From positions 105,524,742 through 105,570,854 of the forward strand of contig NC_057717.1 in the NCBI RefSeq assembly GCF_004010195.1: a stretch of DNA of 46,113 bases. The letters run 5' to 3'. Of this stretch, positions 925 through 44,651 are shown piece after piece (position 1 is the stretch's first letter; the number at the start of each line of letters is the position of its first letter). Below the pieces are notes generated by a model. It did no database searches. It had not been told where the DNA came from and saw nothing but the letters and a program-made list of their open reading frames with translations. The position numbers were made by a program, and so were the translations under genes. This DNA comes from Chiloscyllium plagiosum. Lineage: Eukaryota.

Positions 925-2630
925 CATAAGAACTAAGACATAGGGGCAGAAATTAGGCCATTCAGCCCATTGAGTCTCCTCCGCCATTCAATCATGGCTG
1001 ATAAGTTTCTCAACCCCATTCCCTCACTTTCTCCCCATAATCCTTGATCCCCTTAACAATCAAGAATCTAGCTATCTAACTCCATGTTAAATATACTCAA
1101 TGATCTGGCCTCCACAGCCTTCTGTAGCAATGAATTCCATAGGTTCACCATTCTCTGGCTGAAGAAGTTTCTCCTTATCTCCGTTCTAAAAGGTCTTCCC
1201 TTTACTCTAAGGCTGTGCCTTGGATCCTAGTCTCTCCTTCCAACAGAAACATCTTCCCAACATCCACTCTGTCCAGGCCATTCAGCATTGTGTGTGTTTC
1301 AATTGGATCTCCCCTCATCCTCCTAAACTCCATCAAGTATAGATCCAGAGTCCTCAAACGTTCCTCAGATGTTAAGCTTTTCATTCCTGGGATCATTCTG
1401 ACGAACTTCCTCTGAACACGCTCCGGGGTCAGTACATCCTTCCTGAGATTTGGGGCTCATAACTGTACACAATACTCCAAATGTGGTCTGAGCAGAGCCT
1501 TACAGAGCCTCAGAAGTACGTCCCTGCTTTTCTATTCAAGTCCTCTCAAAATAAACGCCATCATTCCAATTGCCTTCCTAATTACTGACTGAACCTGCAT
1601 GTTTACCTTGAGAGAATCCTGGACTGGAACTCTCAAGTCCCTTTGCACTTCAGACTTCTGAATTTTCTCCCCATTTAGAAAATAGTCCATGCCTCTATTC
1701 TTCCAACCAAAGTGCATGACCTCACACTTTCCCACATTGTACTTCATCTGTTACTTCTTTGCCCACTCTCCTAACCTGTCCAAATCTTTCTGCAGCTTCC
1801 CACTTCCTCAATACTACCTGTCCCTCTACCTATCTTTGTATAGTCTGCAAACTTAGCCAGAATGCCCTCAGTCTCTTCATCTAGATCATTAATGTATAAA
1901 GTGAAAAGTTATGGTCCCAACACTGAGCCTTGCAGAACACCACTTCTCACAGACTGCCACCCTGAGAAGGACCCTTTTATCCCCACTCTCTGCTCTCTGC
2001 CAGACAGCCAAGCTTCTATCCATGCTAGCACCTTGCCTCTAACACCATGGGCCCTTATCTTACTCAGTAACCTCCTGTATGGCACCTTGTCAAAGGCCTT
2101 CTTGAAGTCCAGGTAGATAACATCCATTGGCTCTCCTTGGTCTAACCTGCTCGTAACCTCCTCAAAGAATTCTAGCAGATTTGTCAGGCGCAACCTCCCC
2201 TTGATGAAACCATGCTGACTTTGCCCTATTTTACCGTACACCTCCAAGTATTCAGAAATCTCATCCTTCACAATGGATTCCAGTATCTTACCCATAACCG
2301 AGGTCAGGCTAATCAGTCTGTAATTTTCCATCTTTTGCCTTACTCCCTTTTTAAACAGAGGTATCAGGTTAGTGATTTTCCAGTTCTCTGGGACCCTTCC
2401 TGATTTGAACGATTCCTGAAAGATCATCACTAACACCTCCATTATCTCTTCAGCTATCCATTTGGTCCAGGTGGTTTATCCAACTTCAGGCCATTCAGCT
2501 TTTCTAGCACCTTCTCCTTGGTGATGCCCACCATACTCAGCTCTGCCCCCTCACTCTTTTGAACTTTTGGGATATTACTTGTGTCTTCCACCGTGAAAAC
2601 TGACATGAAGTGATTATACAGTTCCTCAGC
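925..2630 (-). mobile_element. CR1-type LINE, 5'-truncated, disrupted ORF2 reverse transcriptase
   Basis: Fragments NYRLISLTS..GKILE, QHGFIKGR...TNLLEFF, YLDFKKAFDKVP, GVLQGSVLGP, KCEVMHFG and RGDPIET, with frameshifts and stops. Confidence 0.93.
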
Positions 2631-8333: not shown

Positions 8334-8363
8334 TCATTCAAAAGACATCAAGTTCAGGGGAGG
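8334..8363 (-). CDS. RALGPS-like terminal coding exon: PPLNLMSFE*
   Basis: Acceptor atttattgcag|CCT CCC CTG AAC TTG ATG TCT TTT GAA TGA; matches the recalled RALGPS1/2 C-termini VPANLMSFE and VPTNLMTFE. Confidence 0.92.
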   Translation of the reverse strand, partial: PPLNLMSFE

Positions 8364-11300: not shown

Positions 11301-14300
11301 GGAGGGAGGGACAGCAGGAGCACAGACTCATTAGAATATCCAGCACTAAAAGGGTTAACCCACTGGGTTACGTTGGATAAACCTGATCTGTATCCCCGAG
11401 TTTACGAGGTTGAGAGGTGACCCCATCGAAATGTTTGACTTAAAGCATTAAAATGGGTGAGTGTCAGAAAAACCACTTGGTGCGGGATTGGGCTGATTTG
11501 GTCTGTTTCCCAGGATTACAGTTGGAGCTCAGAGGGGAAGCTTTCCGTGTTTACATTCTACAGTCCGTCTCTCTCCCCTCCCCCCACCCCCGTGGGACTG
11601 TCTGTTCTTTCCAAGTCAAGACGTGTGGTGCTGGATCATCCAAGGTGCGAGTGAGTCGACGTTTCGGGCATAAGCCCTTCATCAGGAATGCTCTCCTGAA
11701 TGTTCTTTCCAGTTTGTATCTTCCTCACATTCCAATCACTTGGAACCATCAACATCCTTTCTCCCCCAGCCCTCCACCAACTCTGCATCCTCCCCAGTAT
11801 AAACGCTGTCCCCTCTACACCTCACTCCAGCTCTGAATTTGAATCATGTGGACCCAAAACGAGAGTGTCTCTCTCCCCTTCTCCCCCCCTCCCCCCCCCC
11901 GGATTCTCCCCTTCTCCCCCCGCCCCCCCCCCCACCCCCACCCCACCGTGCCTCCCCTCCCCTCACAGATGGCCCCTTCTTCCTGCAGGTGCTCCCCAAC
12001 ATGTGTTTTCAGTCACAGCCACATGCCCTGATCAAATAAGTAAACCCCTTTCCCAATGTTTTTTTTAAACCATACTGACCTGGTTCCTTTCAGTCGATGT
12101 CAGTGACTTGGCTCCATAGTAAAACAGCTGACCTTCAGAGAGTACGACCCAATAGGTAGTCCACAGGGAGACCTGGGGACAGACAGACAACAGAGTCTCC
12201 AGTTTAGACATTCCTTCTCCAACATCACCGACCACCTAGTCCCACAATCTGTTCTCACAGGCTTCCTGCGACACACTGACCTCTCTCCGGATCCCGCAGG
12301 TCAGTTGTCAGTTAGCGAGATGGCCGATTCCTGCAGTCCCTTGGTTCAGGGCTGTATGGAGAGGATACATGGAGAGATGGTGGGGTGTGTGTGTGGGTGT
12401 ACTTATGTCTGCCTGTCAGTCTCTGTGTGTCCGTGTTGGGGGGCTACATACATTTGACCCACCAGTTTCCCCATTGGTCTCACCAGTCCCTTGTCCCTAA
12501 GTGCCATGTGTGTAATAAGAGAGCAGGTTTCTCAACTACATGGGCACGGTCAAGTGCAGGCTGACTCAATGGAAGCTGGGTCCTGGAAGGTCTGTTCACT
12601 CTAAGTGAACCATCTGTCCCCTCCCACATCACTAAAGGTGGTCATTATCACATTGCTCATTACGGGAGAGACTCACATCAGCACCTCCTTCACTGGCTGG
12701 GAAATGCTTTTGGGGGGGGGGGGGGGGGGGGCGGTGGGGTGCCCTGACAGTGACAGGCGCTACAGAAATGCAGTTCTTGTGGTTGTTTCCTTATTACGGT
12801 GGAATCAGGCCAGTTGGAGGTTTAGTGTTTCACCCCTGATTGGCGATCAGTCTCAGCACAAAATATAAAAATACAAGAACATTCTTCAACAGAAGCTGGG
12901 AGCTCCCACAAAAATTCAAAAACCGATTAGAACCAACCGCTCCATTACAGAACTTATAAACATCTGAATCTCTCCGTTAACACCAGGAGATGAAATCAGA
13001 AAGCAAACACAAGTCGTTCCTCATTGTTCCCATTACCGTTGGCTTCTTGCTGCCTTTCAGGATGGTTTTCCTTCTCAACGCACTTTGGATAGTTGCTGCC
13101 CCTCCATCAGAATGCAGTGCGGCTCTAGGTACAGCAACATTGGGATCGATTAGTCCAGGAACGTGAATTTCCACAACCCCTCATGTTCAATCTGCATGTT
13201 CAAACACCCCCCCCCATCAATTCACCTTTCTGTGCTGAGGGAGACACTCCAGCACTAGCACGTTACTGACGTGGGGAGAGAAAGGGAACCCCCCGAGGAT
13301 TCTCGGCCAGCTCTCCTCCCAAGATCAGATACAGCCCTGCAGCTCGGCCAGGGTCGGCAGGGAGTCTGTGCGATTCTCAGGCAACACACTCACAGGAGAT
13401 CGGGTTCAGGTTCCTCTCAAACATGTGTAGGGTCAGGAGGATCGGTCATGGGAAATGTGGGCTGATGGGAAATGGGTGGGTGCAGACTCGATGGGCCGAA
13501 TGGCCACTCTGTATGGATTCTATACCCCGACCTGTATATACACATGCTTCCAGACAGTGTTAGAGAGGGGGTGGGGGTTTCAGTACCTGATGGTATGTGA
13601 CAGGGTGAGGGGGTTTCAGTACCTGACGGCATGTGAGGGAGCGGGGCAGGGGGGTTTTCAGTACCTGNNNNNNNNNNNNNNNNNNNNNNNNNNNNNNNNN
13701 NNNNNNNNNNNNNNNNNNNNNNNNNNNNNNNNNNNNNNNNNNNNNNNNNNNNNNNNNNNNNNNNNNNNNNNNNNNNNNNNNNNNNNNNNNNNNNNNNNNN
13801 NNNNNNNNNNNNNNNNNNNNNNNNNNNNNNNNNNNNNNNNNNNNNNNNNNNNNNNNNNNNNNNNNNNNNNNNNNNNNNNNNNNNNNNNNNNNNNNNNNNN
13901 NNNNNNNNNNNNNNNNNNNNNNNNNNNNNNNNNNNNNNNNNNNNNNNNNNNNNGGACGGTGCGGCAGCTGCCGCACAGGGTGGGGTGAGGGGGGGGTACG
14001 TACCTCGGCAGGTTCCTGAGGGGGTTCCACATTGACGTTGTCACACGGCCCAGGGAGCAGTAAAACCCAGTGTTACTATGGAAACAGAATAAAACAAGTC
14101 CCAATCAACGCCTGCACAGTGGGGGGGGGGGGGGAGCTCACAGGAACAGCAGGGATTTGTAACCAGCTGCCTCAGCCCCATGACCCTACTACCACTCAGA
14201 GTAAACCCGAACATTTAAAACATTTCCATTATTGATTTAGTATTGATTTCCTTTCAGAGCGTTTCACACTCAGCAGCAGAGGGAGTTGGATGTGGATAAC

Positions 14301-20300: not shown

Positions 20301-23300
20301 AGTCCAGGACAAGCAGAATAATCTCAGAACAAGGAGTTACTATAGAAATGGAGAGGACGTTTCTGGTCTCAGAAACAAGTCAATCTGTGGAATTCTTTAC
20401 GGTAGAGTTCTTCTTAGAAACAACGTCATTCTCAGGCAATCCAGAGTTTGTGGAGGACACTACAGAAACATTTCTTCATTTCACACAGACATCATGTCTC
20501 TCAGTAAAACTCCCTTAGTCTGTCTAGGTCATTAAGGATATTCAAGGCGGAGATGGATAGTTTTAACCAGCAAAGGAATCCAGGGTAATGGGGAAAAAGG
20601 TAGGAAAGAGAAGACTATCAGACCCAGCTGTGATCTCGGAATAGGACGGCAGATTTGATGGGCTGAATGGCCTATTTCTGATCACTGGTAGATACTGCAC
20701 GTTGTCAAATACCTCGGCTACCTCTCCTAAATCAGATGTGCCCCGTTCTATGAAGGGATCCCCTCTGCACCAGCATGTGGACTTTATTGAGAAAGGTTCA
20801 AAACAGCCACAATCTCAGTTTATCCAAAAGGTGACAAAGTCAGAAGTCACATGACACGGGTTACACAGTCCAACAGGTTAACATGAAATCACAGGCTTTC
20901 GGAGCGCTGCTCCTTCATCAGGTGAAGTGACCACGGGGCAGCGCTCCGGAAGCTTGTGATTCAAATAAACCTGTTGGACTATAACCTGGGATTGGGTGAC
21001 TTCTGACCTTGTCCAGCCCAGTCCAACACCGACACTAACACATTGAAAGACGACAGTCAGAGGCTATTACCGTATTCACAGAACTGCTGCAAATCCAAGA
21101 TGAGACGGAGAACGTTTTTGGTCAGGTCACAGCAATGCTGCTTCTGCAGGTTTCCTGTTGATGGTGGAAACGCAGCGTCGATGTAGGTAAGGTCAGACAA
21201 GTAAATCCCTGCCAGAGACAAGAGGCGCCAGGGTCAGAGACACCCGAACCTGAGGCTTCCTTCTGAAATACAAACCTTTAGTTGGTTGTCCCATTTCACT
21301 AAAAGGTGAGGGACATTAAGCTCTTGCATCACAAATGTCTCCTCACCCACCATCACTAAAGTATATCAACCAGGTCATTGACTCTTTGTACATGGGATCT
21401 TGCTGTGCACAGATTGGGAGCCTTGAATCTTAGTTTACAGAGGTTACTCTTCTTAGAAAGAACTTCATTGTAAACAATGCAGAGCTTGTGGAGGATGCTA
21501 CAGGAATATTTCACACAGACAGTGTCTGGTGTAACATCATGTCACTCAGTAAAACTCCTTCAGTCTGTCCGGTAAACGTACACCCTCTTCAGAAAAGCGG
21601 CTCCCCCCCAACCGACACTCTCTTTTGATTTGCTGCAAATGGGGAGGTGGGATTATCGCTGGGTTGTTAATACACAGACCCAGCGAGGCAAGAAGTCTGG
21701 GGACCTGGGGTCAAATCCCAACTCAGCAACTGTGGGAATGGAATTCAATAAATATCTGGGACTAAGGATCGAATGATGACTGGGAAACCATCGTTGGTTG
21801 TTGGAAAAACCCCATCTGGTTCACTAATATCCTTCAGGGAAGGAAACTTCACCCTCACCTGGTCTGGCCTGCACGTTACTCCAGACCCTCAGCAATGTGG
21901 TTGACTCTGAACTGCCCTCTGCCTAGCCAGCGACACCCCGAATGATTTTTAAAAAATTCTTTCAGTGTTGGATCACCATTTAGAGTCGTAGAGATGTACA
22001 GCATGGAAACAGACCCTTTGGTCCAACCCGTCCATGTCGACCAATTTGAACAAATTAATTCTGGAACCCTGCCCCCACCCGTCCAAAACCCGCCTGAAAC
22101 GGCAGGCTGGAGTGTGGACTGGATCCTCAACCTGAAAACTACAGGGATCCTTGAACATTTTCAATTCTCCTTGGGCAGATGCTGGTGAGCCTGTGTAGGT
22201 ACACCTTCAATCATTCATTCTGTAAGGGTTGGATCAAACGGAGGAACCCGCTCAGCTACATCGGAGAACATTTAAGAGTTAATCACATTGTGAAACTGTG
22301 TACATGACGTTAGCCAGACCAGGAATGTTCCTCTGAGACAGGCTCAGCAAATGAAGATTTCTGTAAAACCTGGCAGCTTCATTACTATTAATAGGATTAA
22401 CATTTTATTTCAGATTTATCCATTCATTTGAAATCTCCCCAGTTGGAGTTCTGCTTGAGACCATCAGTTTTGATTCTCTGGGTTAGTAACCTAGTAATGC
22501 TGTGTTACCTCGATAGAACATTCCAGCACATTACACACCCTTCAACCTCGATGTTGCGCTGACCTGTGAAACCAATCTGAAGCCCATCTATCTTACACCA
22601 TTCCATTCTCGCCCATCTGCCTATCCAATGCCCAATCAAATACCCCTAAAGTTGGCGAGTATACTACTGTTGCAGGCAGTGCATACCACGCCCCTACTAC
22701 CTCTGACCTCTGTCCTATATCTATCACCTCACAGTTTAAAGCTATGTCCCCTGTGCTAGCCATCACCATCCGAGGAAAAAGGCTCTCCCTGTCCACCCTA
22801 TCTAACCCTCTGATCATCTTATAAGTCTCAATTAAGTCACTTCTCTATCACCTCACAGTTTAAAGCTATGTCCCCTGTGCTAGCCATCACCATCCGAGGA
22901 AAAAGGCTCTCACTGTCCACCTATCTAACCCTCAGATCATCTTATAAGTCTCAATTAAGTCACCTCTCAACCTTCTACTCTCGAATGAAAACAGCCTCAA
23001 GTCCCTCAGCCTTTCCTCATAAGACCTTCCCTTCACACCAGGCAACATCCTAGTAAATCTGCTCTGCACCCTTTCCAAAGCTTCCACATCCTTCGTATAA
23101 TACAGTGACCAGAACTGTACTAAATACTCCAGGTGCAGCCACATCAGAGTTTTGTACAGCTGCAGCATGACCTCATGGCTCCGAAACGCAATCCCTTTAC
23201 CAATAAAAGCTAACACACTGTATGCCTTCTTAACAACCCTATCAACCTGGACAGCAACTTTCAAGGATCTGTGTTCCTGGACACAGATCTCTCTGCTCAT

Positions 23301-32300: not shown

Positions 32301-35300
32301 CCATTGGGTTGCTGGGAGATGTGGAACATCAGGAATAAGGAAGTGGGCTGAAATAGGTGAGAGACCCAGTCCGACTTGAACTGGACAGGGCTCTGTAACA
32401 GAGAGGAGCCTCTGATCGGAACACAACCATCCTCAAAGCTCAAATCGATCACTTCCCTGCATTCCCAGGTTTGGAGGGAGGGAGTTTAGCCGCGGAAAAC
32501 GTGATACATGATTCACCCTCCGGCACCACTTCCCATCTCCCCAAACCCCATCACATTCTTGGGATTATGACCATTAGACAGTGTGCTATCTGCAACATAT
32601 TGTTGACAGTAGCGTATGTCTGTGAGCTGGTGACAGACAGAGACAGTCAGTCGCGAGCAGTTCACTCAGAGCCTGGGGAGAAGGGAGTACAGTGTGTATC
32701 TAAAGAACGCTCTGGATACCTCTTGCTGCTCGTGAACACAAACTCAACTCAGGACTTGGACATCCACCACTTTGTGTGGATGCAGAACCCAGTCTCACAC
32801 TGGCACAGCCAAGGGTTAATCAGTAAAAACTAGTTTGAGGTGAGGGATGTGACAGATTTACATGGAATGATCTCCCTGGAGGGGGGGACTTGTGTGTTTA
32901 TCAACAGGCACTAGGACAGCCACCACTCGTGGCTGTGATACCCAACACTCGGAACGCTAGCAACAACTGGAGCAAGAGCTTGGTCTCGGGCAACGAAATA
33001 CTGAAGGATCAGGATTACAGCGTGGCACAGGACAGGCTGAAGAGAAGACAGCAGTCACCTCCTCCCACAACAATCCCGATGGCAACGACCAAGACAGCCG
33101 GTGAGTAAACAGTCACCTCTCAGGGACGCTGCAGTGGGAGATACTGCCCCCTGTGTTTACCATCGGCACACCCCTTGAACCTGCTGACCACGGAGAGGAC
33201 ACTTTCCACAAGCTCTCTAATGTCACAGCTGACACGATCATTCAACACAAAATCCCCACCACATCCAATTCACTCATAATATGCCTCCAGTCATCGGGGG
33301 GAAATAGGCTCCTTACGTATTCTAGCTTCTCTGGCTCGGCCCATCCTTAATTGCCCTCGAGGTGGTGGATACCCCATGGAAAGGTGGGTAAATCACCAAA
33401 TAGCCTCGGTGTGTCCATTACCCGATGGTGTGCACACTGACTGGCTCCTTAGTTAATATTTCACCGAAATCACGTTCTACGTTTTGATTGGATACACCAA
33501 TTCTAGCTTTTGAACTTTGAGGGCTCCTTTGTTTCTCCATTCTTCATTCCCAATGAAATTATCCAATCGGCTGATGGAGCGTTGTGGCTGTGAGGGGAGG
33601 CAGTGAGATCGCCTGGGGTGGGACTGTGTCCATCCTTTCACCAGAGGGGACGGTCTTGTGTTGAATCACCCACAATCCTACACTGAGGTCAGCCAGGTAG
33701 CAACTATCCATTCAAACACAAGCAGGCTGACAACAAAGGTCTCGTCCCTAGGGTGGGACAGATCTTTAAGGGGAGGGGAAAGATTTAAAAAGGGACACGA
33801 GGGGCAACTTCCTCATAGAGAGAGAGTGGCTCATGCGTGGAACCAACTGCCAAAGGAAGCAGGGGATGCAGGTACAGCCACGATGGACAGAAATAGGAAA
33901 ACATCAGGGGCAAATGGGCCGCTCACAATGAGGTGGGACGAGATGGGGAAGTCTAGTCGGTTTTGGTTTTGCCGCTGTTTAACTATTATTTACTTATTTA
34001 TGCTACTTAACTCTGTGATCCTGCCTGTTGTTGCTCACAAGACAAAGCTTTTCGCTGTGCCTCAGTACACGTGACAATAAATTCAATTCAATTCATTCAA
34101 TGGTCCAAAAGATGCGTTTTCGTGTTGTATGACTCTATTGTTCTGCAGCTGGTGGGTGAAGTGCAGGGAAAACACATCGAAAAATTGTGCTGTCGTGGTT
34201 TTGGGGGGTGGGGGAAAGGGTGATCCTTCACCTCATTCTGTCAGTGATGGAGATTGCTCAATAACTCCCTTATCATGAGCTGGTGTCCCCCCAGGACAGC
34301 GGAAGCCAAATCAGGTCCAGAGTGGCCTCAGTTCACCAAGCATTCCCGTTTTCCAAGAGACACGAGAACAAAGAGAAACAACATAGATACAAGACAGCTA
34401 AGGAAATATTCTTCAAACTAATCTTGGTTTCTCATGTGCCCTGCTAAAAATAACCATGGCAAAGCCAGACACACAGATGTCTCACTGCCACTACCTCTGA
34501 CTGGAGGAGCTGATATCTCCCCCCTCCGCACACCCCTCCATTTGCTTCTCTCTGCTCCTGTTGCACACACTGTCTTAAAGACACATGGCAAGTTCCCCCA
34601 AAGGAGATGGTGAACTCCAATCCTGCGTGTCCCATTTCAATCCTACTCTGTGAATGTTAAAATGCTGCTTCATCACATCTGGATTTAGCACAGGGATCAC
34701 AGACTGGTGGAAAACCAAGGCCAGCCAATTCCGAGATCCCAGTGGGACAAACCTCTCTCCACCCTCCACCACCGCCCCCCCCACCCGGCAACAGGGAGAG
34801 GGGTAAATCCAGTGCCATCTCCCAACTCTCCACCCCCGGCTCAGACACCACCTCAAGGGACTGGCTTGTTTTCTTCAAAAACAGGTAAAGTCCAAACAAA
34901 TGTCTGAAGATCAAAGTAAGATTGGAATGTGTTGTGAAGCATCTTAAATAAGGCAGAAGAAAGAAGTTAAACGAAGGTCACTGTGGGTCTGGAAACATTC
35001 TCTGACCTTTTAGTAACTGCCACTCACACCACAGATTGAAGCAAGTCACAGGGCAGCAATGAACATACTCACTTTCTGTGATAATAGACCATTGCTACAA
35101 AACACAAAAGCTGCTCCCACAGCTCTAATAACATAGCAACCACTGACAATAAAACATGTGAACTACAGCACAGCTTGCTCAGTAACAGGTCTCCCTCCCA
35201 CTTAAGGCCGAGTCATCGAGTCAGAGCTATACAGCACGGGAACAGACCCTTCGGTCCAGCTCATCCATGCCAGCCAGATATCCTCAATTCATCAAGTCCC

Positions 35301-38300
35301 ATTTGCCAGCACTTGGCCCACATCTCTCTAAAGGACAAAGTGAGGTCTGCAGCTGCTGGAGACTAGAGTTGAGACTGTGGTGCTGGAAAAGTACAGCAGG
35401 TCAGACAGAATCCGAGGAGCAGGAGAGTCGGCGTTTCGGGCAAAAGCCCTTCATCAGGGATCTCCCAGGAATCTGATGCAAGGTTTTTGCCCAAAACATC
35501 GATTCTCCTGCTCCTCGGATGCATCCTGACCTACTGTGCTTTTCCAGCACCACAGTCTCGACCCATATCCCTCTAAACCCTTCCTATTCATATACCCATC
35601 CAGATGCCTTTTAAATGTTGTAATTGTAGCAGCCTCCACTTCCTCTGGTAGCTCATTCCACACACGCACCACCCTCTGTGTGTACACAAAAGTTGCCCCT
35701 CAGGCCCAACAGAAACGGAGGAATTGCTTTTGTCTTTGGTCTGGAAATCTCCTGCACAGACAGCAGTGGAGGTTGGTCATTAAATATAATCAGCACAGAG
35801 TTAGACAGATTTTTGATTGACCAGAGAATGTAGTCAGGCAGGAAATGGCCACAATGAGATCAGCTATATTCCTCACGATTCTTCGAGACTGTGACCTAAT
35901 GAGCTAAAGCACAGCCACACAGAATAGAGAAACATAGCCCCTGTCAGCACTGGTTAGTCCAGGACAGTGTGTCAGCCTGACCTGGGTCAGATTAGCTGGG
36001 CAAAAGTGAGGTCTGCAGATGCTGGAATCAGAGTCGAGAGGGTGGTGCTGGTAAAGCACAGCAGGTCAGGCAGCATCCGGGGAGCAGGAGAATCGACGTT
36101 TTGTACAAAAGCCTCATTACCGATAGAAGGGCTTATGCCTGAAACATCGATTCTCCTGCTCCTGTCTGTCTGTCTCTCAGCCTTCTCTGGATGTACTCAC
36201 TGACCCAGTCTCAACAGCTTTCAGTGGCAAAGAACTCCACAGATTGACTGAAGAAATTTCTCCCCATCGGTTTTAAATGAGTGACCCTTCATTTGGAGGT
36301 TGTGGTTTGCTGATTTGAAACTCTCCCACAAAAGCAAATTACCTCAAACAGACACTAACTCCACTTCTAACCCATTTAATCCACCCTCAACATGTCAGAA
36401 TTAGGAAGGCAATGCTTATAGATACAAGGTTTATTTTCATATTTTTTGTCATTTACATAAATGATTTTGATGTGAGCATAGCAGGTATAGTTAGTAAGTT
36501 TGCAGGTGGAGGTGTAGTGGACAGCGAAGAGGGTTACCTCAGATTACAACAGGATCTGGACCAGATGGGCCAATGGGCTGAGAAGTGGCAGATGGAGTTT
36601 AATTCAGATAAACACAAGGTGCGACATTTTGGGAAAGCAAGTCTTAGCAGGACTTATACACTTCATGGTAAGGTCCGAGGGAGCGCTGCTGAACACAGAG
36701 ACCTTGGAGTGCAGGTTCATAGCTCCTTGAAAGTGGAGTCACAGGTAGATAGGATAGTGAAGGCGGCGTTTGGTATGCTTTCTTTTATTGGTCAGAGTAT
36801 TGAGTACAGGAGTTGGGAGGTCATGTTGCGGCTGTACAGGACATTGGTTAGGCCACTGTTGGAATATTGTGTGCAATTCTGGTCTCCTTCCTATCGGAAA
36901 GATGTTGTGAAACTTGAAAGGGCTCAGAAAAGATTTACAAGGATGTTGCCAGGGTTGGAGGGTCTGAGCTATAGGGAGAGGCTGAACAGGCTGGGGCTGT
37001 TTTCCCTGGAGTGTCGGAGGCTAAAGGGTGACCTTATTGAGGTTTACAAAATTATGAGGGGCATGGATAGGATAAATAGGCAAAGTCTTTTCCCTGGGGT
37101 CGGGGAGTCCAGAACTAGAGAGGTTTAGGGTGAGAGGGGAAAGATATAAAAGAGACCTATGGGGTAACTGTTTCACATAGAGGGTGGTAGGTGTATGGAA
37201 TGAGCTGCCAGAGGAAGTGGTGGAGGCTGGTACAATTACAACATTTAAGAGGCATTGGGATGGGTATTTGAATAGGAAGGGTTTGGAAGGATATGTGCCG
37301 GGTGCTGGCATGTGGGACTAGATTGAGGTTGGGATATCTGGTCAGCATGGACGGGTTGGACCGAAGGGTTTGTGTCTGTGCTGTACATCTCTATGACTCA
37401 AATTTCTGACATCACTTGCTCCCTCGATGCCCAAAGTTGTTGTACAGAATGGACATACTGTGGTCAGGGACGAGGAGGACAATATCCTGGGAATGAGCAT
37501 CGGAATAACATACGGATAGGGCCAGATGGGAGTGGTTCTGTGGGGTTACTGGGCGATTCTGTTTTGACCAGGTCCCTGGAAGGATTGTCTCCAGGTTTTG
37601 GAAGATGGTCACCGATCCAGTGGGATCTACTTGATCAAGCCAACCACCAATCGCCTGATGCAGGTCTGGTGTGACCAGCAGGAGGGTCCCAGCGGCTGGA
37701 CCGTCATCCAGAGACGGCAAGATGGTTCGGTCAATTTCTTCAGGACCTGGGAGAGTTACAAGGTGAGTGAAGGTGGGGCATCAGCTGCCTAGCATTCCGC
37801 CCTCAGTCTGTGTCCACCTCCCTCACACATACATTTCCCATAACAGGCCCAGGCCTGGGCTGCTTCGGGGCCCAGAGTATAAAGGGCACCCTCAGTTACT
37901 GGGCACTACACACCTATCCTCGGACCTCCGGCCCACACCAGAGAAGATACTGGAGAAACTCAGCAGGTTAGTGGAGACAGAAGTTGAAACTTTATTGCTG
38001 GAACAGCACAGCAGGTCAGGCAGCATCCAGGGAACAGGAGATTCGACGTTTCGGGCACAGGCCCTTCTTCAGGAATGAGCAGAGAGTGTTCAGCAGGAGA
38101 AGATAAAAGGTAGGGAGGAGGGACTTGGAGGAGGGAAGTTGGAAATGTGATAGGTGGAAAGAGGTCAAGGTGAGGGTGATAGGTCGGAGTAGGATGGAGG
38201 CGGAGAGGTCAAGAAGAAGACTGCAGGTCAGGAAGGCGGCTGTGTTCCTACACCAACATTTCTGTCCCAGATCTGTTGCAGTGTTCCTTAACGCAAGTTC

Positions 38301-41300
38301 AAAGAACAACACTTCATTTTCCACTTGGGGATTCTGTTTCTGTTCTTCTCATTCCTGAAGAAGGGCCTGTGCCCGAAACGTCGAATCTCCTGTTCCCTGG
38401 ATGCTGCCTGACCTGCTGTGCTGTTCCAGCAATAAAGTTTCAACTTTGATCTCCAGCATCTGCAGACCTCACTTTCTCCTAGTGGAGACAGAAACAGAGT
38501 TAACATTTCAGGCTCAGATGTACATGAACAGGTAAGGTCTGGAAGGATATGGGCTGGGGGCAGGAAGGTGGGACGAGTTTAGTTTGGGATGATGGTCAGC
38601 ATAGACTGGTTGGGCTGAAGGGTCTGTTTCTGTGCTGGATGACTCTTCTTACGAAACAAGTCATTGGATTCAAAACGTTCACTCTGTTTCTGTCTGCACA
38701 GATGCTGCCACACCTGCTGAGTTTCTATTGCATTCTGGGGTTTTTTCGGGGGAATTTATGTTGTCAGGATCAGGGGTAGGTAGTGGGCAGGTTTGGGAGA
38801 AGGTTGACTCAAAGATATTCCAGTGCCCAAGCCTGAACGGGCAACGGACAGTCACAGTAATCCAGAGACCGTGGATCGGAATCTCACAACAGGGAAATTC
38901 ACAGTTAGATTAATCAAACCACCTGGCCTAACAAACCAATCCACCCTCCTTGGTAGATTCTTAACCGCGCTCTGAAAGAGCCTTGCAAGTCACTCAGGAG
39001 TGGGCAGACTCATTAAAGAGTAAAATGAATGCAACTCTACACAGGGACTGGCTCAAAGCAGTAACCTGTGACATGTTTACAGGAAAGCCAAACATCCGTG
39101 TTGGTGGTAAATACAGAATATTCTCCTCACCGTCCCACCCCTCACCTCTATCACCAGCGTAAAGACCACCCTTCCCCATCTGCTCGCGTTCTGACAAAGA
39201 GTCACCAAACACCCTCTCTCCACAGTTGCTGCCAGACGTGCAGAGTTTCTCCAGCGCTTGTTTCAATTTTAACGTACTTGCCTTTCAAAGCAGATAGTCT
39301 TTCCACTGTATTTCCCACACGTACAAGGGAACGCTATCAATAAACACTGCCTTGATTGTTATCTGTAGCAAGGTTTTGGCAACATTGACGGTGAATACTG
39401 GCTGGGCTTGGAGAACATCTACTGGCTGACCAATCAGGATAACTACAAGCTGCGGATAGTAATGGAAGATTGGCAAGGCAGGAGAGTGTTTGCAGAGTAC
39501 GACGACTTCCGGGTGGAAGCAGAGGGAGACTTCTACAGGCTGAGGTTAGGCCATTATCATGGGAACGCTGGAGATTCCTTATCTTGGCACAACGGCAAGC
39601 AGTTCACCACCCTGGACAGAGATCGGGATCTGTACTTAGGTAGGACAGTTTCCTTGGGGTTACAGTGCAATGGTCAGTCAGGTTAATGAAGGATTATCCT
39701 CACTGCTCTCTCTCTCTGTTTCCTTCCAAGGTAACTGTGCCCACTACCAGAAAGGAGGCTGGTGGTATTACACGTGTGCCCACTCAAACCTGAATGGAGT
39801 GTGGTATAAAGGAGGGCACTATCGCAGCAAGTACCAGGATGGAGTTTATTGGGCAGAATTCCGTGGGGGTGCGTACTCCTTGAAGAGAGTGGTGATGATG
39901 ATACGCCCAAACCAGATCCTGCTGTAAACCCCACTCTCTCAGCACTTGTGTCCCACTGCCCATGTTATCACCTCTTCATACTATATTACACATTGTGTTA
40001 CAGTCACCATTGTATCCACAACATTACAAACAACTGAACTACCTACCTAGAGTATACTATGGCTTGAGGAGTTTAAAGCTGTTTCTTCTGTTTAGCCTGA
40101 ACCAGAGAACTGTCCTGAGGACTAAGTTAAAAATCATGCAACACCAGGTTAGAGTCCAACAGGTTTAATTGGAAGCACTAGCTTTCGGAGCGCTGCTCCT
40201 TCATCAGGTGATTGTGGAGAACACGATTTAAGACACAGAAGTGTGATGTAACTGAAACGTTTGCTATAAATTCTGTGTCTTAAATCGTGTCCTTCACAAC
40301 CACCTGATGAAGGAGCGTCGCTCCGAAAGCTAGTGCTTCCAATTAAACCTGCTGGACGATAACCTAGGGTTGTGAGATTTTTAACTTTATCCACACCAAT
40401 CCAACGCCGGCATCTCCAAGTCCTGAGGACAGTAATGGTTAAAGGACAGAGCTCACAACAGTCACCAAATTCCATCCCAGCCTCCCATCTCCCACTGAGA
40501 TCCTCACACTGACAAGCAACACACCATTCTAATATCGCTCATCATTTATTACATTTTATAATCAGCTGCAGTGTCTTTTCAGTGAATTATAGAAATAGAG
40601 ATTTCAGGAGAAGCAACCACCGTCTTGGAAACATCAAGATAATTAGAAGCCAACACGCTATTGGCAGAGTTACGCAGTAACTGTAAGGTGGCTACAGGAA
40701 GTGAACAGGACAGGCCTCATGCAGTTCAATTAAACACAGGCCCCAAAGCAGAGGACTGCTCCATAGTTCCACACTGCCCGGGGTCACCAAGCTGTGGGCT
40801 CTACATGGGAGGGGGGGTACCGGGGTTCTACGAGTGGCGCATTTAACCCTGCAGGCAGATTTGCTACACCCTACCTCAGGTATCTGATGGGGAGACTGGG
40901 TGCCCAATAACAGAATGTGTCTTTAGATTAGATTCCCTACAGTGTGGAAACAGGCCCTTCAGCCCAAAGAGTCCACACTGACCCTCCGAAGAGTAACCCA
41001 CCCAGACCCATTCCCCTACTCTATGTTTACCCCTGACTAATGCCACTAACACTACGGGGCAATTTAGCATGGCCAATTCACCTGACCTGCATATCTTTCT
41101 GGACTGTGGGAGGAAACCGGAGCACCCGGAGGAAACCCACGCAGACACGGGGACAATGTGCAAATTCCACACAGTCACCCGAGGCTGGAATCGAACCCGG
41201 TCCCTGACACTGTGAGGTAGCAGTACTAACCACTGAGCCACCAAACTGCCCACATCTTGTTCTCTATGCCAACATCCTACACCTCAAAACCATCCCCCTC

Positions 41301-44300
41301 CTTCCAGAAAAAAGGTGAACAGATCATTAGGGTAAACATTTAAAGTTCAATACTTTGGGATGTCGATCGTCAGTTGAGGCAATTATCTGAAATTAATTAG
41401 TGGCCCCCATATCCACAAGCACCCACTCCCTCCACCACCCTGACACTCAGCAGCAGCAGTGTGTACCACCTACAAGATGTACTGCAGAAACTCACCCAAG
41501 ACCCTCAGACAGCACCTTCCAAACCCACAGCCACATCCAACTAGAGAACAGGGGCAGCAGACACATGGGAACACCACCCCTGCAAGTTCCCCTCCAACCC
41601 ACTCACCATCCTGACTTGGAAATATATCATCGTTCCTTGACTGTCACTGGGTGAGAATCCTGGAATTCCCTCCCTAAGGGTTTTGTGGGTCAACCGATAA
41701 CACATGGACTGCCTTCTCAAAGGCATCTCGGCCATATGTGCTGGCTCAGGCAGTGATGGCCGCATCCCAAGAGTGAATTTTAAAAAAACAATTGGTGACT
41801 TAGGAAGCCATTCCACCCCTTTGCCTGTTCTGGCATCCCATGAGATTATAGCTAATGGATAACCTAACACTGTTTACCTGTCTTTAATTCCACCCCCCTC
41901 AACACCGTCCCCTAAAAGAAACACCTTCAGCAATCTGAATTCTGATCTTTCTAACCGAGCCCCTTACTGTGAAGGGCAGGTGGAGATTTACATAGCCTGC
42001 GTCTCAGGAAGGGTTACAAGTTATCACTAATTATTGGTCTGGGGGGTTTGATTTTTAAAATGCTGCTTTCAACCCAGCTATCCCACTCCCAAAACCTGTC
42101 TGGAGGAGCTGGCTACTGTACTGACCCAGTCAGCTCTTTCCATTCTATTCAACGCTGGGACACCACCTCTTCATCTTCTATACTTGGAGATATAAGCCCA
42201 GTCTCTGCAAATTCTCTTCAAGTTAACTCTTTCAGCTTTAGTATTACTGCAGTCAGAGTAATAGTCGACTCCAGTGTCCCTGAAACATTTCTCTAGTTCC
42301 CATTAAATAAAATCCATGTCATTCACTCCAATCCCTCCCTCAGGGAGCGGGTTCCACATTCTCACTCCCTTCAAGTGGCTTTCTTGGGAAATATTATACT
42401 GACAGCCTCGAATTCTGCTCTTTCCCACAAGAGGGATATTTTCACACAATCAAAATCTTTAATAATTTTAAAAGGGCCTCAATTAGGTCACGTTCTGTTT
42501 TCAAGAGAAAAGACAGTTAGCCGCTCTCCTGATGTATTCACCTAAGTTTCTGGTTTCACATTTAGAAACCCCCCCTGGGCACCCTCTCCAGTGCCTGGAG
42601 GTAAAAGTGATGACCAGAACCACACTCAGTACTGTCTGCAGTCCTTTCATTCCTCTACTCCACACTTCGCCCACATCATTGACTGTACACCCCTCAGTCT
42701 GACCGGGCTCAGACACAGCAACGCTGGCCCTTAAACCCTTGTATCTCCAGAACAGGCCAGCAGGAGGCAATCACAATTCAGTTCGGATTAGTTGATCATT
42801 TCCAATCCGACCCTCTCCAAGACATTAATCACCATCATTCTGTGTGGGAACCCATCATCAGGATAATGCAACTCCCTCCGTTTGATCATCTACTCACTGC
42901 TTTAAACAAGACATGGCCCGATTTCCTAGAAAACTAACACGGAATTAGATGCATTCTCATCCTAGATATTAATCTGTTAACTCTTTATGTTTGTTTACGC
43001 TTGTGTGCTAGAAAACACTGTAAATACCAGAACAAATAAACCACTTTCTGCTGTAATATACTTTGGAGTTTGGTAATGAATCAGTGAGGTATTGGAGAAT
43101 CTCAGTATGTGTCCGAGTCAACACAGAAATCCCATTTGGGTAAAAGCAGAATGATGTGACGGTGAAACTGCTGCAGCCCTGAATTACTCAGCATCAGAGG
43201 GAGAGAGCTGGGTTTTCATTCAACCCCAGGATAGTGGGAATTAAACTGCAGAAAGAAGGTTGGGCTGTTGGTGAGGAGTGACAGTAAATACTAAAACCAC
43301 AGGACAAACCTGCCACGGGTCACAGCATCACATTCACTAACCACCATCAGTCAAAGGCCTTTCGACAGTTCTCTCTGCATGCAAATTACACAATACACCT
43401 CTCACAGGCAACATCAAACCTCCTTCAAACACAATGCTGACTTCTAACTTGTACTGATGTGCAGTTTGACTGATGTCCCTTGTAACAGCTTGTATTGGGA
43501 ACATACAAGGCTGCTGGTTGGAGCTGATGTGAAGGAGGTGTGGTCAGTGTTGTCTATGAAGTGAGGACCCACACACAATCAGACACATGGTTGCTCCAAT
43601 TCATTCCACACATCGCAAACTAAACCATGTGGCCAACATTACATTGCAGAAACAATAAACTAACACATAGGAATCGTGGATAAGAGAATGTTTCGTTAAT
43701 AGCAACCTCCTGCTAACAGTTTCAAAACTGGCATCAGGCCCAGGGGACTTATCTATTTTCACCTTTTCCAGGATTTCCAACACCTCTTCTCTACATACCT
43801 CTACATTTATTGGACTCATTGAAGGTTTTCAGACTTCAGTAACATTGATGGAGTAAAGTTCAGACGAAGTACCATTTCCAGAATAAAACTGCTCACCAGT
43901 GTTCTACCCCAAGGATCCTGATGCATTACATGTTCACTGTAATTCAAATTTTCCCCAGACAACTCTCCTCTTTGCAGAGATTAGAGGTGGATCTGTGCAG
44001 TTGTGTAGGAATGAGGCAGAGAGCAACAACCTGAAAAATCAGGCTCACTCTGTTCCCAGAGTTAATTCAGCCTGGTTATTTCAAACATGGATCACACAAA
44101 CACATCCTCCTACCTCAAAACAGCAGACGTTTTATTGTTTCTAACACACCGTGCATTAACCAGATGAGGCAGAATGGACAAACACCCATCAGTCTGGAGC
44201 TGATTTCTCCACCGCGAGAATTCTGATCCACAAGGGACAAAGCAAAAGGCAGGAAACCATCAATGAGGGTCACATCAGACACTCCCCTTCCCCCCAGTCC

Positions 44301-44651
44301 CCGGGCTCAGACTGGGGCAGACTCTCCCCCCAGTCCCCGGGCTCAGACTGGGGGAGACTCTCCCCCCAGTCCCCGGGCTCAGACTGGGGGAGACTCTCCC
44401 CCTCATTCCCCGGGCTCAGACTCCAGTCAATGGGACAGCAGGCACCAATACTGAAATATGGGAAGTTTGTAGCAGATCCTGAACATGCAGCCGCCCTGTG
44501 AGAGATAGAGGAGATTAAACTCACCTAAATATGGAATACATGGGGTCGCTTTCAAACTGCAAATATAATTTCGGAGCATTTCATAGTTATCGCCGTTGGA
44601 CGTCAGGGTCTGCAGCTTCTCAAACGTAGCCTTATCTTTCCTGCTCAACAG
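8334..44651 (-). CDS. RALGPS-family Ral guanine nucleotide exchange factor (RALGPS2-like, divergent), 5'-partial; 13 coding exons in window
   Basis: Hand-spliced exons 44651-44525, 21208-21071, 19791-19701, 18971-18907, 18033-17928, 17161-17043, 15139-15082, 14075-14004, 13124-13037, 12172-12080, 11111-11009, 10388-10297, 8363-8334 total 1182 nt, stay in frame and are all GT-AG. Motifs [43 protein letters not shown] domain and terminal NLMSFE* are colinear with RALGPS1/2 as recalled. Confidence 0.92.
8700..10110 (-). mobile_element. Degenerate LINE (CR1/L2-group) 3' portion, interrupted by a SINE
   Basis: [12 protein letters not shown]-terminal motif; same 3' end sequence as 41400-41790 on the other strand; aataaatgctg tail near 8725. 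Confidence 0.7.
9198..9485 (-). mobile_element. V-SINE (HE1-like)
   Basis: Same V-domain and B-box (gggttcgattcc) as the other copies. Confidence 0.8.
10297..10388 (-). CDS. RALGPS-like exon: (G)[30 protein letters not shown] (PH C-terminal helix)
   Basis: Acceptor ttttcaagcag|GG, donor CCAG|gtaagt; 92 nt; Y.F.AG.R.NA.LW.KHL..AC motif. Confidence 0.95.
11009..11111 (-). CDS. RALGPS-like exon: [34 protein letters not shown](G) (PH domain)
   Basis: Acceptor ttttggagcag|TTT, donor CACG|gtgagt; 103 nt; FKS...K.V...GWM....DP..D.FQL motif. Confidence 0.93.
11654..11689 (-). ncRNA. Family A hammerhead motif in a short Penelope-like fragment, sense to the RALGPS-like intron
   Basis: Minus strand reads AUUC-CUGAUGA-A-GGGC UUAU GCCC-GAAA-CG-UC-GACU. 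Confidence 0.6.
12080..12172 (-). CDS. RALGPS-like exon: [31 protein letters not shown] (PH domain)
   Basis: Acceptor tgtccccag|GTC, donor CCAG|gtcagt; 93 nt, phase 0-0; WT.YW..L...L.YY.AKSL motif. Missed by the ORF track. Confidence 0.95.
13037..13124 (-). CDS. RALGPS-like exon: [29 protein letters not shown] (PH domain start)
   Basis: Acceptor gtacctag|A, donor AACG|gtaatg; 88 nt; TIQ..LRRKT.LK..KKPT motif. Confidence 0.9.
13560..13667. repeat. Minisatellite (ggggtttcagtacctga core) running into an N gap
   Basis: Three copies at ~38-45 nt spacing before the gap at 13668. Confidence 0.7.
13668..13953. other. Assembly gap (286 N)
   Basis: N run. Confidence 1.
14004..14075 (-). CDS. RALGPS-like exon: [23 protein letters not shown](R)
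   Basis: Acceptor tgtttccatag|T, donor CGAG|gtacgt; 72 nt, symmetric phase 2-2; Y.SLG.VT resembles RALGPS2 LYHSLGPVT. Confidence 0.8.
14330..14920 (+). mobile_element. Degenerate CR1 3' fragment
   Basis: [24 protein letters not shown] and LDRVD motifs. Confidence 0.7.
15082..15139 (-). CDS. RALGPS-like linker exon: (A)[18 protein letters not shown](R)
   Basis: Acceptor ttcttgttcccag|CC, donor AACG|gtgagc; 58 nt, phase 1 to 2; ends in FER like the corresponding RALGPS2 segment. Confidence 0.75.
15495..16178 (+). mobile_element. Possible solo LTR
   Basis: Begins TGT and ends ACA, with internal AATAAA at ~16042 and composition distinct from its flanks; no target-site duplication found. Confidence 0.35.
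16390..16630 (+). mobile_element. DeuSINE-like fragment
   Basis: gagatgttaaac...cctcaaccaaca...atcttgctgtgcg...cattggctttgggacgt resembles the recalled Deu-domain consensus. Confidence 0.55.
17043..17161 (-). CDS. RALGPS-like linker exon: [39 protein letters not shown]
   Basis: Long pyrimidine tract then ttggcag|A, donor AAGG|gtgagt; 119 nt; SATFP and R.LLDDS motifs conserved in RALGPS1/2. Confidence 0.88.
17928..18033 (-). CDS. RALGPS-like linker exon: (G)[34 protein letters not shown](K)
   Basis: Acceptor tcttttcctcag|GC, donor TACAA|gtgagt; 106 nt, phase 1 to 2; [10 protein letters not shown] aligns with RALGPS2 GHRKCHSLGY (recalled). Confidence 0.8.
18070..18725 (+). mobile_element. Rex1/Babar-like LINE 3' end interrupted by a V-SINE (18386-18638, minus)
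   Basis: Degenerate [10 protein letters not shown] / [13 protein letters not shown] Rex1 C-terminal text and tail; V-SINE head ggcacggtggctcagtggttagc on minus. Confidence 0.55.
18907..18971 (-). CDS. RALGPS-like exon: (R)[21 protein letters not shown](G)
   Basis: Acceptor tctttctacag|A, donor CAAG|gtgaat; 65 nt; LSL.IEP is the motif ending the CDC25 domain. Confidence 0.9.
19209..19500 (-). mobile_element. V-SINE (HE1-like)
   Basis: V-domain and B-box gggttcgattcc. Confidence 0.8.
19701..19791 (-). CDS. RALGPS-like exon: (D)[29 protein letters not shown](R)
   Basis: Acceptor gtttgcag|AC, donor ACAG|gttagt; 91 nt; matches [26 protein letters not shown]. Confidence 0.95.
20835..21040. mobile_element. 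Small inverted family B Penelope-like element
   Basis: Arms ~20834-20915 and ~20937-21013 are inverted; the minus-strand hammerhead has GAAAGCCU in place of GAAAGCUA. Confidence 0.7.
21071..21208 (-). CDS. RALGPS-like exon: (G)[45 protein letters not shown]
   Basis: Acceptor tctctggcag|GG, donor TACG|gtaata; 138 nt, phase 1 to 1; continues the [14 protein letters not shown] motif. Missed by the ORF track. Confidence 0.95.
21640..21930 (+). mobile_element. tRNA-derived SINE of a second family (fragment also at ~20080-20220)
   Basis: B-box-like ggtcaaatccc, followed by aaaacccatctggttcactaat...agggaaggaaa...ctggtctggcct. Confidence 0.6.
22510..23900 (-). mobile_element. CR1 LINE 3' portion with internal 124-bp tandem duplication
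   Basis: [46 protein letters not shown]; 22720-22843 is repeated from 22844. Confidence 0.9.
24770..24950. repeat. Degenerate (GT/GA)n low-complexity tract; (CA)n-like tract also at 19843-19910
   Basis: Visible dinucleotide runs. Confidence 0.7.
25920..26220 (+). mobile_element. DeuSINE-like element (other fragments at ~21345-21510 plus and ~24404-24500 minus)
   Basis: ctgaggg...tgtaaaag.tccca...cctggccaatatctatccctcaaccaacatca...tgtttgtggcagcttgc resembles the Deu-domain consensus. Confidence 0.65.
27828..28030. mobile_element. Inverted family A Penelope-like pair (degenerate hammerheads)
   Basis: 27859-27935 is inverted relative to ~27950-28027. Confidence 0.75.
28150..29110 (-). mobile_element. 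Old degenerate CR1 fragment
   Basis: NDL.EG.ESML..FADDTK and LQRDLD RT motifs. Confidence 0.65.
29959..30458. other. Assembly gap (500 N)
   Basis: N run. Confidence 1.
31099..31740 (+). CDS. ANGPTL6: ANGPTL first coding exon: signal peptide [37 protein letters not shown], coiled coil
   Basis: Acceptor tgtgtcgcag|G at 31063; ATG at 31099 (alternative at 31108); donor CCAG|gtaaaa; EVDG..NEVK.LRKE...MN.RVTQLY.QLLHEII motif. Confidence 0.93.
31099..39927 (+). CDS. ANGPTL6: Angiopoietin-like protein (ANGPTL1/2/6 clade, best fit ANGPTL6), 497 aa, 5 coding exons
   Basis: Exons 31099-31740, 32908-33100, 37572-37762, 39369-39639, 39731-39927 total 1494 nt in frame. Signal peptide, CTYTFIVP motif, coiled coil and fibrinogen-related domain are present. 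[19 protein letters not shown] and a split linker exon favour ANGPTL6 over ANGPTL1/2 (recalled). The family call is near certain; the paralog call is moderate. Confidence 0.8.
31985..32205. repeat. GC-rich minisatellite (gtcaccccgagaccctgacccccc core; ~35 and ~21 nt units)
   Basis: About eight tandem core copies in ANGPTL intron. Confidence 0.9.
32908..33100 (+). CDS. ANGPTL6: ANGPTL linker exon: [12 protein letters not shown]...GNEILKDQ...TTKTA(G)
   Basis: Acceptor tttatcaacag|GCA, donor GCCG|gtgagt; 193 nt, phase 0 to 1, needed for frame; PPLV.V.P and NEI..D motifs. Confidence 0.88.
35335..35560. mobile_element. Inverted family A Penelope-like pair inserted in a CR1 3' tail (~35213-35700); similar pair at ~36000-36165
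   Basis: Inverted arms flanked by near-identical ccacatctctctaaa / ccatatccctctaaa. Confidence 0.75.
36430..37400 (+). mobile_element. CR1 LINE 3' end, relatively young
   Basis: Long open ORF2 fragment: [50 protein letters not shown]. Confidence 0.93.
37572..37762 (+). CDS. ANGPTL6: ANGPTL fibrinogen domain exon: (G)PWKDC...[23 protein letters not shown]
   Basis: Acceptor gttttgaccag|GT, donor CAAG|gtgagt; 191 nt; FReD signature [16 protein letters not shown]. Confidence 0.96.
38041..38076 (-). ncRNA. Minimal type I hammerhead ribozyme motif (family A), intact
   Basis: Exact reverse complement of 38351-38386. Confidence 0.72.
38351..38386 (+). ncRNA. Minimal type I hammerhead ribozyme motif (family A), intact
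   Basis: AUUC-CUGAAGA-A-GGGC CUGU GCCC-GAAA-CG-UC-GAAU: perfect stem I and palindromic ACGU; predicted cut after 38382. Confidence 0.72.
39369..39639 (+). CDS. ANGPTL6: ANGPTL fibrinogen domain exon: [18 protein letters not shown]...[25 protein letters not shown](G)
   Basis: Acceptor atctgtag|CAA, donor TTAG|gtagga; 271 nt. Confidence 0.96.
39731..39927 (+). CDS. ANGPTL6: ANGPTL last coding exon: (G)[12 protein letters not shown]...[10 protein letters not shown]
   Basis: Acceptor tttccttccaag|GT after a 91-nt intron; [13 protein letters not shown] and [11 protein letters not shown] motifs; TAA ends at 39927. Confidence 0.96.
40176..40210 (-). ncRNA. Minimal hammerhead motif (family B), intact
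   Basis: Minus strand reads CAC-CUGAUGA-A-GGAGC AGC GCUCC-GAAA-GC-UA-GUG. Confidence 0.7.
40301..40335 (+). ncRNA. Minimal hammerhead motif (family B), intact
   Basis: CAC-CUGAUGA-A-GGAGC GUC GCUCC-GAAA-GC-UA-GUG; predicted cut after 40332. Confidence 0.7.
40923..41253 (-). mobile_element. V-SINE (HE1-like), near full length
   Basis: A-box gtggctcagtggttag, B-box gggttcgattcc, V-domain, tail gggaatctaatctaa. Confidence 0.87.
41400..41790 (+). mobile_element. LINE 3' end (same family as 8700-9200)
   Basis: Shared cagcaccttccaaaccca...ctcaccatcctgacttggaaatat sequence. Confidence 0.7.
44278..44425. repeat. 36-bp minisatellite, about 4 copies
   Basis: cagtccccgggctcagact starts at 44295, 44331, 44367 and (variant) ~44404. 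Confidence 0.9.
44525..44651 (-). CDS. RALGPS-like exon: [42 protein letters not shown](G), CDC25 domain
   Basis: Acceptor ttggttatag|CTG, donor TTAG|gtgagt; 127 nt, phase 0 to 1; PCIPYLG is a RasGEF/CDC25 signature. Confidence 0.95.

Follow-up and report, generated by a model that had tools for sequence, protein, structure and literature searches.

The stretch of DNA studied here, a window of 46,113 nucleotides from Chiloscyllium plagiosum (C8:105524742-105570854 of a 3.56-Gb assembly, in which C8, C11 and C30 are contig labels), very probably carries a third RALGPS paralogue with an ANGPTL6 orthologue nested antisense within it, both descended from an ancestral pair that was duplicated before cartilaginous and bony vertebrates split. 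On this reading, the window would hold the 3' two-thirds of the host gene, provisionally RALGPS3, which would encode a Ras-independent Ral guanine-nucleotide exchange factor of the RasGEF and PH type. The guest, a putative orthologue of ANGPTL6 (a secreted protein with a coiled coil and a fibrinogen-like domain), would lie in the intron that interrupts the RasGEF domain. A single ancestral nested pair would have been copied as a unit, with the two rounds of genome duplication early in vertebrate history as the most likely occasion; all three hosts would have been retained in elasmobranchs, and the bony-vertebrate lineage would have lost the third one and kept its guest next to EIF3G and DNMT1.

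In the human genome, RALGPS2/ANGPTL1 lies at 1q25 and RALGPS1/ANGPTL2 at 9q33, and ANGPTL6 (19p13.2) has no known RALGPS host. The pairs ANGPTL1/RALGPS2 and ANGPTL2/RALGPS1 have been described as antisense embedded pairs, and ANGPTL6 is not among the five embedded ANGPT/ANGPTL genes listed in the part of that source available to us (PMC6371847). The same source gives DOCK7/ANGPTL3 and DOCK6/ANGPTL8, which also have paralogous exchange-factor hosts with antisense ANGPTL guests, but there the host family is DOCK rather than RasGEF and the guests belong to another ANGPTL subfamily. A source on the guest family states that elephant shark and little skate still lacked an identified angptl6, and the portion of it that we could consult does not mention RALGPS (PMC5237311). 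We found no description of a third RALGPS, or of a "RALGPS3", in the main texts of the literature searched.

Gene models were obtained by tblastn with the nearest database protein followed by a splice-aware fit, using P0001 for the guest (a C. punctatum protein named angiopoietin-related protein 6, its best database match) and P0029 as reference for the host (a C. punctatum protein of 550 amino acids named RalGPS1-like). The guest is a complete open reading frame of 497 amino acids on the + strand, with five coding exons (31099-39927) and four introns, all GT-AG, of phases 0, 1, 0 and 1; the phase-0 intron at 31740/32908 interrupts the linker. Its signal peptide and coiled coil were assigned by eye only, and Pfam Fibrinogen_C matches P0001 with 238.9 bits. 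The host occupies the - strand, with 13 exons in the window running from 44651/44648 down to 8337, and its 12 internal junctions there are all GT-AG. The 393 amino acids that it encodes in the window match residues 158-550 of P0029, with 386 of 393 identical; judged by the identity of its proteins, the source is an elasmobranch very closely related to C. punctatum. Four further host exons (P0029 residues 18-50, 67-97, 95-125 and 125-157) lie upstream, beyond the window, at C8:105575043-105638762; no genomic match to P0029 residues 1-17 and 51-66 was located upstream of the window. The ANGPTL gene lies antisense within a single host intron, which interrupts PCIPYL-G-IYLSD between the first and second bases of the Gly codon (phase 1). 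The initial annotation had read the nest in the same way, and its protein lengths, coordinates, exon count, intron phase and linker intron are all borne out. One of its arguments did not survive: the residues it took as typical of ANGPTL6 are not diagnostic, as all three ANGPTL paralogues of this genome contain DRDRD, and the ANGPTL2 on C30 has GGAYSL as well.

The genome contains RALGPS at three loci and three ANGPTL genes that are closely related to one another, and these are always paired, on C8 (the window), C11 and C30. At all three loci the junction reads IPYL-G/GT...AG/Gx-ATT-TAC (slashes mark the splice sites), with the intron at the same place, in the same phase and with the guest in antisense. 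As separate RALGPS2/ANGPTL1-type and RALGPS1/ANGPTL2 loci exist with the same intron and phase, the window holds a third pair; and since the three pairs share intron, phase and orientation, the nest would be older than the split between cartilaginous and bony vertebrates. The pair on C11 resembles that of the window in the domains of its host (RasGEF and PH) and in the placing of its guest, which lies antisense in the phase-1 intron that follows PCIPYL(G), and RALGPS2 is the nearest host clade; the C11 guest, however, has four coding exons against five in the window, and the C11 hosting intron measures 119 kb against 23 kb. The pair on C30 agrees with the window in nesting intron, phase and orientation, and its guest is the most similar paralogue of the window guest (82% in exon 4), but it is a separate locus with a 231-kb hosting intron and its guest ends differently. 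That C30 guest is 64-90% identical to Xenopus angptl2 exon by exon and shares its C-terminal residues. The extra linker intron belongs to the window guest only: in both the C11 and the C30 guests the coil and linker are spanned by a single exon, and each has four coding exons, the number that the initial annotation gave for ANGPTL1 and ANGPTL2. In addition to the three loci, C28:15833690-15833885 contains an uninterrupted match to RalGPS2 residues 291-356 that is divided between two frames (84% and 72% identity). The C11 gene encodes this part in more than one exon, and the C28 stretch has the appearance of a processed RALGPS2 fragment with a frameshift.

The placement of the host was examined in a tree of 36 rows and 582 columns (IQ-TREE, LG+C20+F+G4 by posterior mean site frequency), with oyster, crinoid and butterfly as outgroups and three cyclostome rows. 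The nine third-host rows form a clade with support of 100/100 that lies outside both gnathostome RALGPS2 (six chondrichthyan and seven bony-vertebrate rows, 100/99) and RALGPS1 (99/99), the latter including the C30 gene, Callorhinchus P0143, lemur and ray-finned fishes. Three records named RalGPS1, from Xenopus laevis (P0056), Corythaeola (P0038) and Sciurus (P0256), fall inside the RALGPS2 clade; they are probably misnamed and were not used as RALGPS1 anchors. For the guest, a tree of 31 rows and 494 columns was built, after distant fibrinogen-domain outgroups from the same genome had been dropped (their branches measured 4-8 changes per site). The window guest falls inside a 22-row ANGPTL6 clade (99/99) made of 12 elasmobranch rows together with coelacanth, lungfish, salamander, caecilian, sturgeon, bichir and catfishes. 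The ANGPTL2 clade (seven rows, 100/99) is separate and includes the C30 guest. Grouping ANGPTL6 with the ANGPTL1-type sequences withstands the approximately unbiased (AU) test (p 0.41), and the guest tree is therefore compatible with the host tree. Both window proteins thus lie outside the RALGPS2/ANGPTL1-type and RALGPS1/ANGPTL2 clades, and separate loci for these two pairs are present on C11 and C30; the third RALGPS/ANGPTL6 copy proposed in the initial annotation is supported.

The neighbourhood of the window supports the ANGPTL6 assignment independently of the trees. The sole intron-bearing eIF3g copy of the genome is at C8:105481798-105483533, 50 kb past the host stop codon, and DNMT1-RFD matches occur only at C8:105449877-105451325, 82 kb past it, so that the comparison with the ANGPTL6 region suggested by the initial annotation does show synteny. 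The order angptl6-eif3g-dnmt1-s1pr2-cdc37-tyk2-raver1 has been described as a syntenic group conserved among vertebrates, in the part of the source at hand (PMC6976628). The bony-vertebrate ANGPTL6 locus therefore shares with the window an orthologous guest and the EIF3G and DNMT1 neighbours, but it has no known RALGPS host, whereas the window ANGPTL6 lies fully inside a host intron.

With respect to origin, we infer whole-genome duplication from two observations, the shape of the trees and the presence of PBX-family (PBC) genes on C8 and on C30, in the latter case 2 Mb from RALGPS1; this was the one family examined, and its remaining copies are on unplaced scaffolds. The human paralogy of chromosomes 1, 9 and 19 provides the background for this idea.

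The host appears to have a restricted distribution. A search with P0029 gave 2023 protein matches at E <= 1e-30, and the best 120 of these 2023 were examined. Eight third-host members are found among them, all elasmobranch by tree: seven top the list (C. punctatum, Rhincodon, Heptranchias, Scyliorhinus, Pristis, Leucoraja and Hemitrygon), followed, after a drop in score from 654 to 581 bits, by RalGPS2 proteins of every vertebrate class, and the eighth, Hypanus, stands further down. A HMMER search over 1.84 billion cluster representatives gave 150 best matches, and in a 183-row FastTree with all 150 the third-host clade has 10 rows, again all elasmobranch, with Mustelus asterias added. In these protein searches, host orthologues were thus found in sharks, rays and skates only, in nine named species. 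Their source names are "RalGPS1-like" in five species and "RalGPS2-like" in four, and this inconsistent naming makes the host look, wrongly, as if it were recently related to one of these two paralogues. The records further suggest that ANGPTL6 and the third host share one contig in Heptranchias, Scyliorhinus, Pristis, Hemitrygon and C. punctatum. Several candidates from other lineages were discarded. The Callorhinchus "RalGPS1-like" protein P0143 groups with RALGPS1; a crude sorting of 407 proteins by bits per residue called 21 third type, of which eight are true members, P0032 (Amazona) being a RALGPS2 fragment, and hagfish P0267 and other distant rows showing marginal differences only among the three references. 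In the eel Synaphobranchus kaupii, P0147 and P0018 (SKAU_G00004060 and SKAU_G00004080) have near-adjacent locus tags on one contig and are RALGPS1 and ANGPTL2 by tree, probably representing the known nested pair, unannotated in this teleost.

As no bony vertebrate showed the host, even though coelacanth, lungfish, amphibians, sturgeon, bichir and catfish have ANGPTL6, the loss of the host probably predates mammals by a long way; judging by these searches, which were of proteins, it appears to have occurred in the bony-vertebrate lineage. Two claims of the initial annotation are narrowed by these data. Retention of the host in cartilaginous fish stands for sharks, rays and skates, the annotated proteins of chimaera showing none. 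Loss of the host around ANGPTL6 probably stands as well, at a date that would be much earlier than the mammalian lineage.

What kind of protein the third host encodes can be approached through its domains. Pfam finds RasGEF in P0029 with 181.7 bits (residues 48-215) and PH with 28.5 bits, against a cut-off of 25.1, the PH score of P0152 being 34.1 bits; only these two domains pass E <= 0.001 on P0029 and P0152, and the RasGEF_N (REM) and Ras-association domains are absent. Among the RasGEF columns that are invariant across the RALGPS1, RALGPS2, cyclostome and invertebrate rows, 43 of 51 are kept in all third-host rows. Sharks and rays alike keep the reading frame, the splice sites, both domains and most invariant residues of the catalytic domain, so that the third host is probably still a working Ral exchange factor, a function that we predict from sequence. 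At the same time, comparison of shark with ray indicates that it is under much weaker or altered constraint than RALGPS2, with identities of 71% vs 100% in RasGEF, 52% vs 93% in the linker and 64% vs 96% in PH; the initial annotation was right that the host is far more diverged than RALGPS1 and RALGPS2.

Several observations weigh against our reading, the first of them against the host as a working member of its family. A central proline-rich PxxP motif, which binds SH3 domains, is part of the RALGPS family name. A PxxP cluster is present at residues 317-332 in the five RALGPS1 and RALGPS2 rows examined (at about residue 327 in the nearly frozen RALGPS2), and at the homologous place it is missing from the fast-evolving third host, in all eight rows examined; a lone PxxP occurs at 404-439 in some of them. 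It could be proposed that the third host is ancient but is no working exchange factor, being in decay or merely transcribed and kept for ANGPTL6 and for regulatory DNA in its introns. The weak constraint in RasGEF, linker and PH, the lost PxxP cluster and a PH score barely over the Pfam cut-off would all fit such a gene, yet the open frame with every junction in the window canonical and the full-length RasGEF and PH orthologues annotated in sharks and rays speak against it, and the retention of the invariant RasGEF columns in every orthologue is hard to square with neutral decay since the shark-ray split. We consider this alternative unlikely.

The other contrary observations concern the age of the pair. 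The third host is sister to RALGPS2 with support of 92/82, and the deep order of the tree is only moderately supported; its stem is long (0.49 vs 0.12 for RALGPS2), so that long-branch effects could push it out of RALGPS2. In the guest tree, which includes neither mammalian ANGPTL6 nor any named ANGPTL1, the order among ANGPTL6, ANGPTL2 and the ANGPTL1-type is weakly supported (76/41 for ANGPTL6 with ANGPTL2), and calling the guest ANGPTL6 depends on automatically assigned names for sequences from outside mammals and on synteny. The fibrinogen-like domain of the guest scores higher against the solved domain of human ANGPTL2 (6y41, 431 bits) than against that of human ANGPTL6 (6y43, 337 bits). 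Finally, no third host was found in chimaera or in any bony vertebrate, in searches that covered annotated proteins rather than genomes. Taken at face value, a host confined to elasmobranchs, with a long stem and long tips and nearest to RALGPS2, and a guest domain more like ANGPTL2 than ANGPTL6, could be explained by a segmental duplication of RALGPS2/ANGPTL1 (or of RALGPS1/ANGPTL2), specific to elasmobranchs or to chondrichthyans, whose product then diverged fast and owes its tree position to a long-branch artefact. The AU test, however, rejects the grouping of the third host with elasmobranch RALGPS2 (log-likelihood difference 34.2, p 3.3e-5) and with chondrichthyan RALGPS2 (25.6, p 1.6e-4), and more weakly that with RALGPS1 (15.0, p 0.017), although this test shares the long-branch weakness and its groups were set after the first tree had been seen, the rival itself having been stated beforehand. 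Against a recent duplicate also stand the grouping of the guest with bony-vertebrate ANGPTL6 and the rejection by the AU test of window-type sequences with ANGPTL2 (log-likelihood difference 26.3, p 0.006), the position of the locus beside EIF3G and DNMT1, as for ANGPTL6 elsewhere in vertebrates, and the extra linker intron. The higher ANGPTL2 score may reflect a rate effect, which fits the description of Angptl6, in the consulted part of the source on the guest family, as one of the members that diverge most when fish and human are compared (PMC5237311). Overall, a lineage-specific duplicate is highly improbable. An independent entry of ANGPTL6 into a RALGPS intron in elasmobranchs, which the hostless bony-vertebrate ANGPTL6 might suggest, has next to no likelihood given that intron, phase and antisense orientation are alike in all three pairs of the genome and that the guest tree does not reject the order of the host tree.

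If the third pair is indeed ancient, our results suggest that human ANGPTL6 is the surviving guest of a host gene apparently lost from bony vertebrates, and a shared ancient nest followed by loss of the third host would account for the difference in humans between the nested ANGPTL1 and ANGPTL2 and the un-nested ANGPTL6. A broader scenario can be drawn, which we put forward as tentative and somewhat doubtful as a whole: the nest would be older than the vertebrate genome duplications and would survive in triplicate only in sharks and rays; the third host would have kept its catalytic core but no longer its SH3-binding proline motif, and would either have acquired a new and narrower part in signalling or have persisted mainly as regulatory housing for ANGPTL6; and the ANGPTL6 of bony vertebrates, including humans, would be an orphaned guest whose host was deleted around it, some of its regulatory DNA possibly deriving from former host introns. 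Nested host-guest pairs are often discussed as insertion accidents, and the RALGPS-ANGPTL pair is one that can be traced through ancient duplications. It could also serve as a natural experiment on what becomes of a guest after its host disappears, by comparing ANGPTL6 regulation in elasmobranchs and bony vertebrates, and it would add a third, fast-evolving predicted Ral exchange factor to the vertebrate set. The coordinates of the features are collected in the table below.

Table. Coding features of the nested pair in the window (window positions) and of the three RALGPS/ANGPTL pairs of the genome (contig positions for C11 and C30); slashes mark splice sites
Feature	Coordinates	Strand	Basis or remark
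ANGPTL6 coding exon 1 (signal peptide and coiled coil, aa 1-214)	31099-31740	+	donor CAG/GTAAAA, phase 0; 96% identity to P0001 over 215 aa
ANGPTL6 coding exon 2 (linker)	32908-33100	+	exon boundary absent in both paralogues of the same genome
ANGPTL6 coding exon 3 (start of fibrinogen-like domain)	37572-37762	+	splice-aware fit
ANGPTL6 coding exon 4 (fibrinogen-like domain)	39369-39639	+	Pfam Fibrinogen_C 98.6 bits from the exon alone
ANGPTL6 coding exon 5	39731-39924, TAA 39925-39927	+	splice-aware fit
Host exon ending ...PCIPYL and first base of Gly	44525-44651	-	donor G/GTGAGT, phase 1
Host intron, 23,316 bases, holding the entire ANGPTL6 coding region in antisense	21209-44524	-	splice fit
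Host exon starting with the rest of the split Gly codon (end of RasGEF core)	21071-21208	-	splice fit
Host exons, end of RasGEF region and start of linker	19791-19701, 18971-18907, 18033-17928	-	splice fit
Host linker exons	17161-17043, 15139-15082, 14075-14004, 13124-13037	-	splice fit
Host PH-domain exons	12172-12080, 11111-11009, 10391-10297	-	Pfam PH on P0029 residues 439-535
Host last coding exon (PPLNLMSFE) and TGA stop 8336-8334	8334-8363	-	splice fit
C8 pair, host (window)		-	hosting intron 23 kb
C8 pair, guest ANGPTL (window)		+	
C11 pair, host exons	84311530-84574923	-	74-96% identity to named shark RalGPS2; hosting intron 119 kb
C11 pair, guest ANGPTL1-type	84401919-84455330	+	
C30 pair, host exons	30938174-31434388	+	RalGPS1-like reading; hosting intron 231 kb
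C30 pair, guest ANGPTL2	31030603-31062464	-	

The wider surroundings of the locus were also searched for genes of the ANGPTL6 region. UPF0515 (SHFL-type), the human SHFL presumably being a direct neighbour of ANGPTL6, is present as two tandem copies at C8:101166897-101249502, 4.3 Mb from ANGPTL6 and not adjacent to it. Fibrinogen-domain exons at C8:101209308-101211991, between these two copies, may be another ANGPTL-type gene. A search of the genome with Brix (for PPAN) gave one weak match, on an unplaced scaffold, and a search with CDC37_N gave no match, the controls giving none either. An intronless eIF3g match at C27:35596166-35596504, covering nearly the whole domain with four in-frame TGA stops, is probably a processed pseudogene.

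The window itself has some further features. A run of 500 N (29959-30458) is found some 640 bases before the ANGPTL6 start codon, and the promoter or 5' untranslated region of this gene is therefore incomplete; a second run (13668-13953) is within a host intron of the linker region. Minisatellites of 36-base units are found in ANGPTL6 intron 1 (31985-32206), about 245 bases downstream of the exon-1 donor, and in the host at 44289-44422, about 100 bases downstream of the donor at 44525. Retroelement debris is represented by an open reading frame at 1909-2475 (-) with a Pfam RVT_1 match of 60.7 bits. Two further stretches, 22932-23300 (-) and 36319-37128 (+), the latter within ANGPTL6 intron 2, matched no Pfam family and look retroelement-like by eye.

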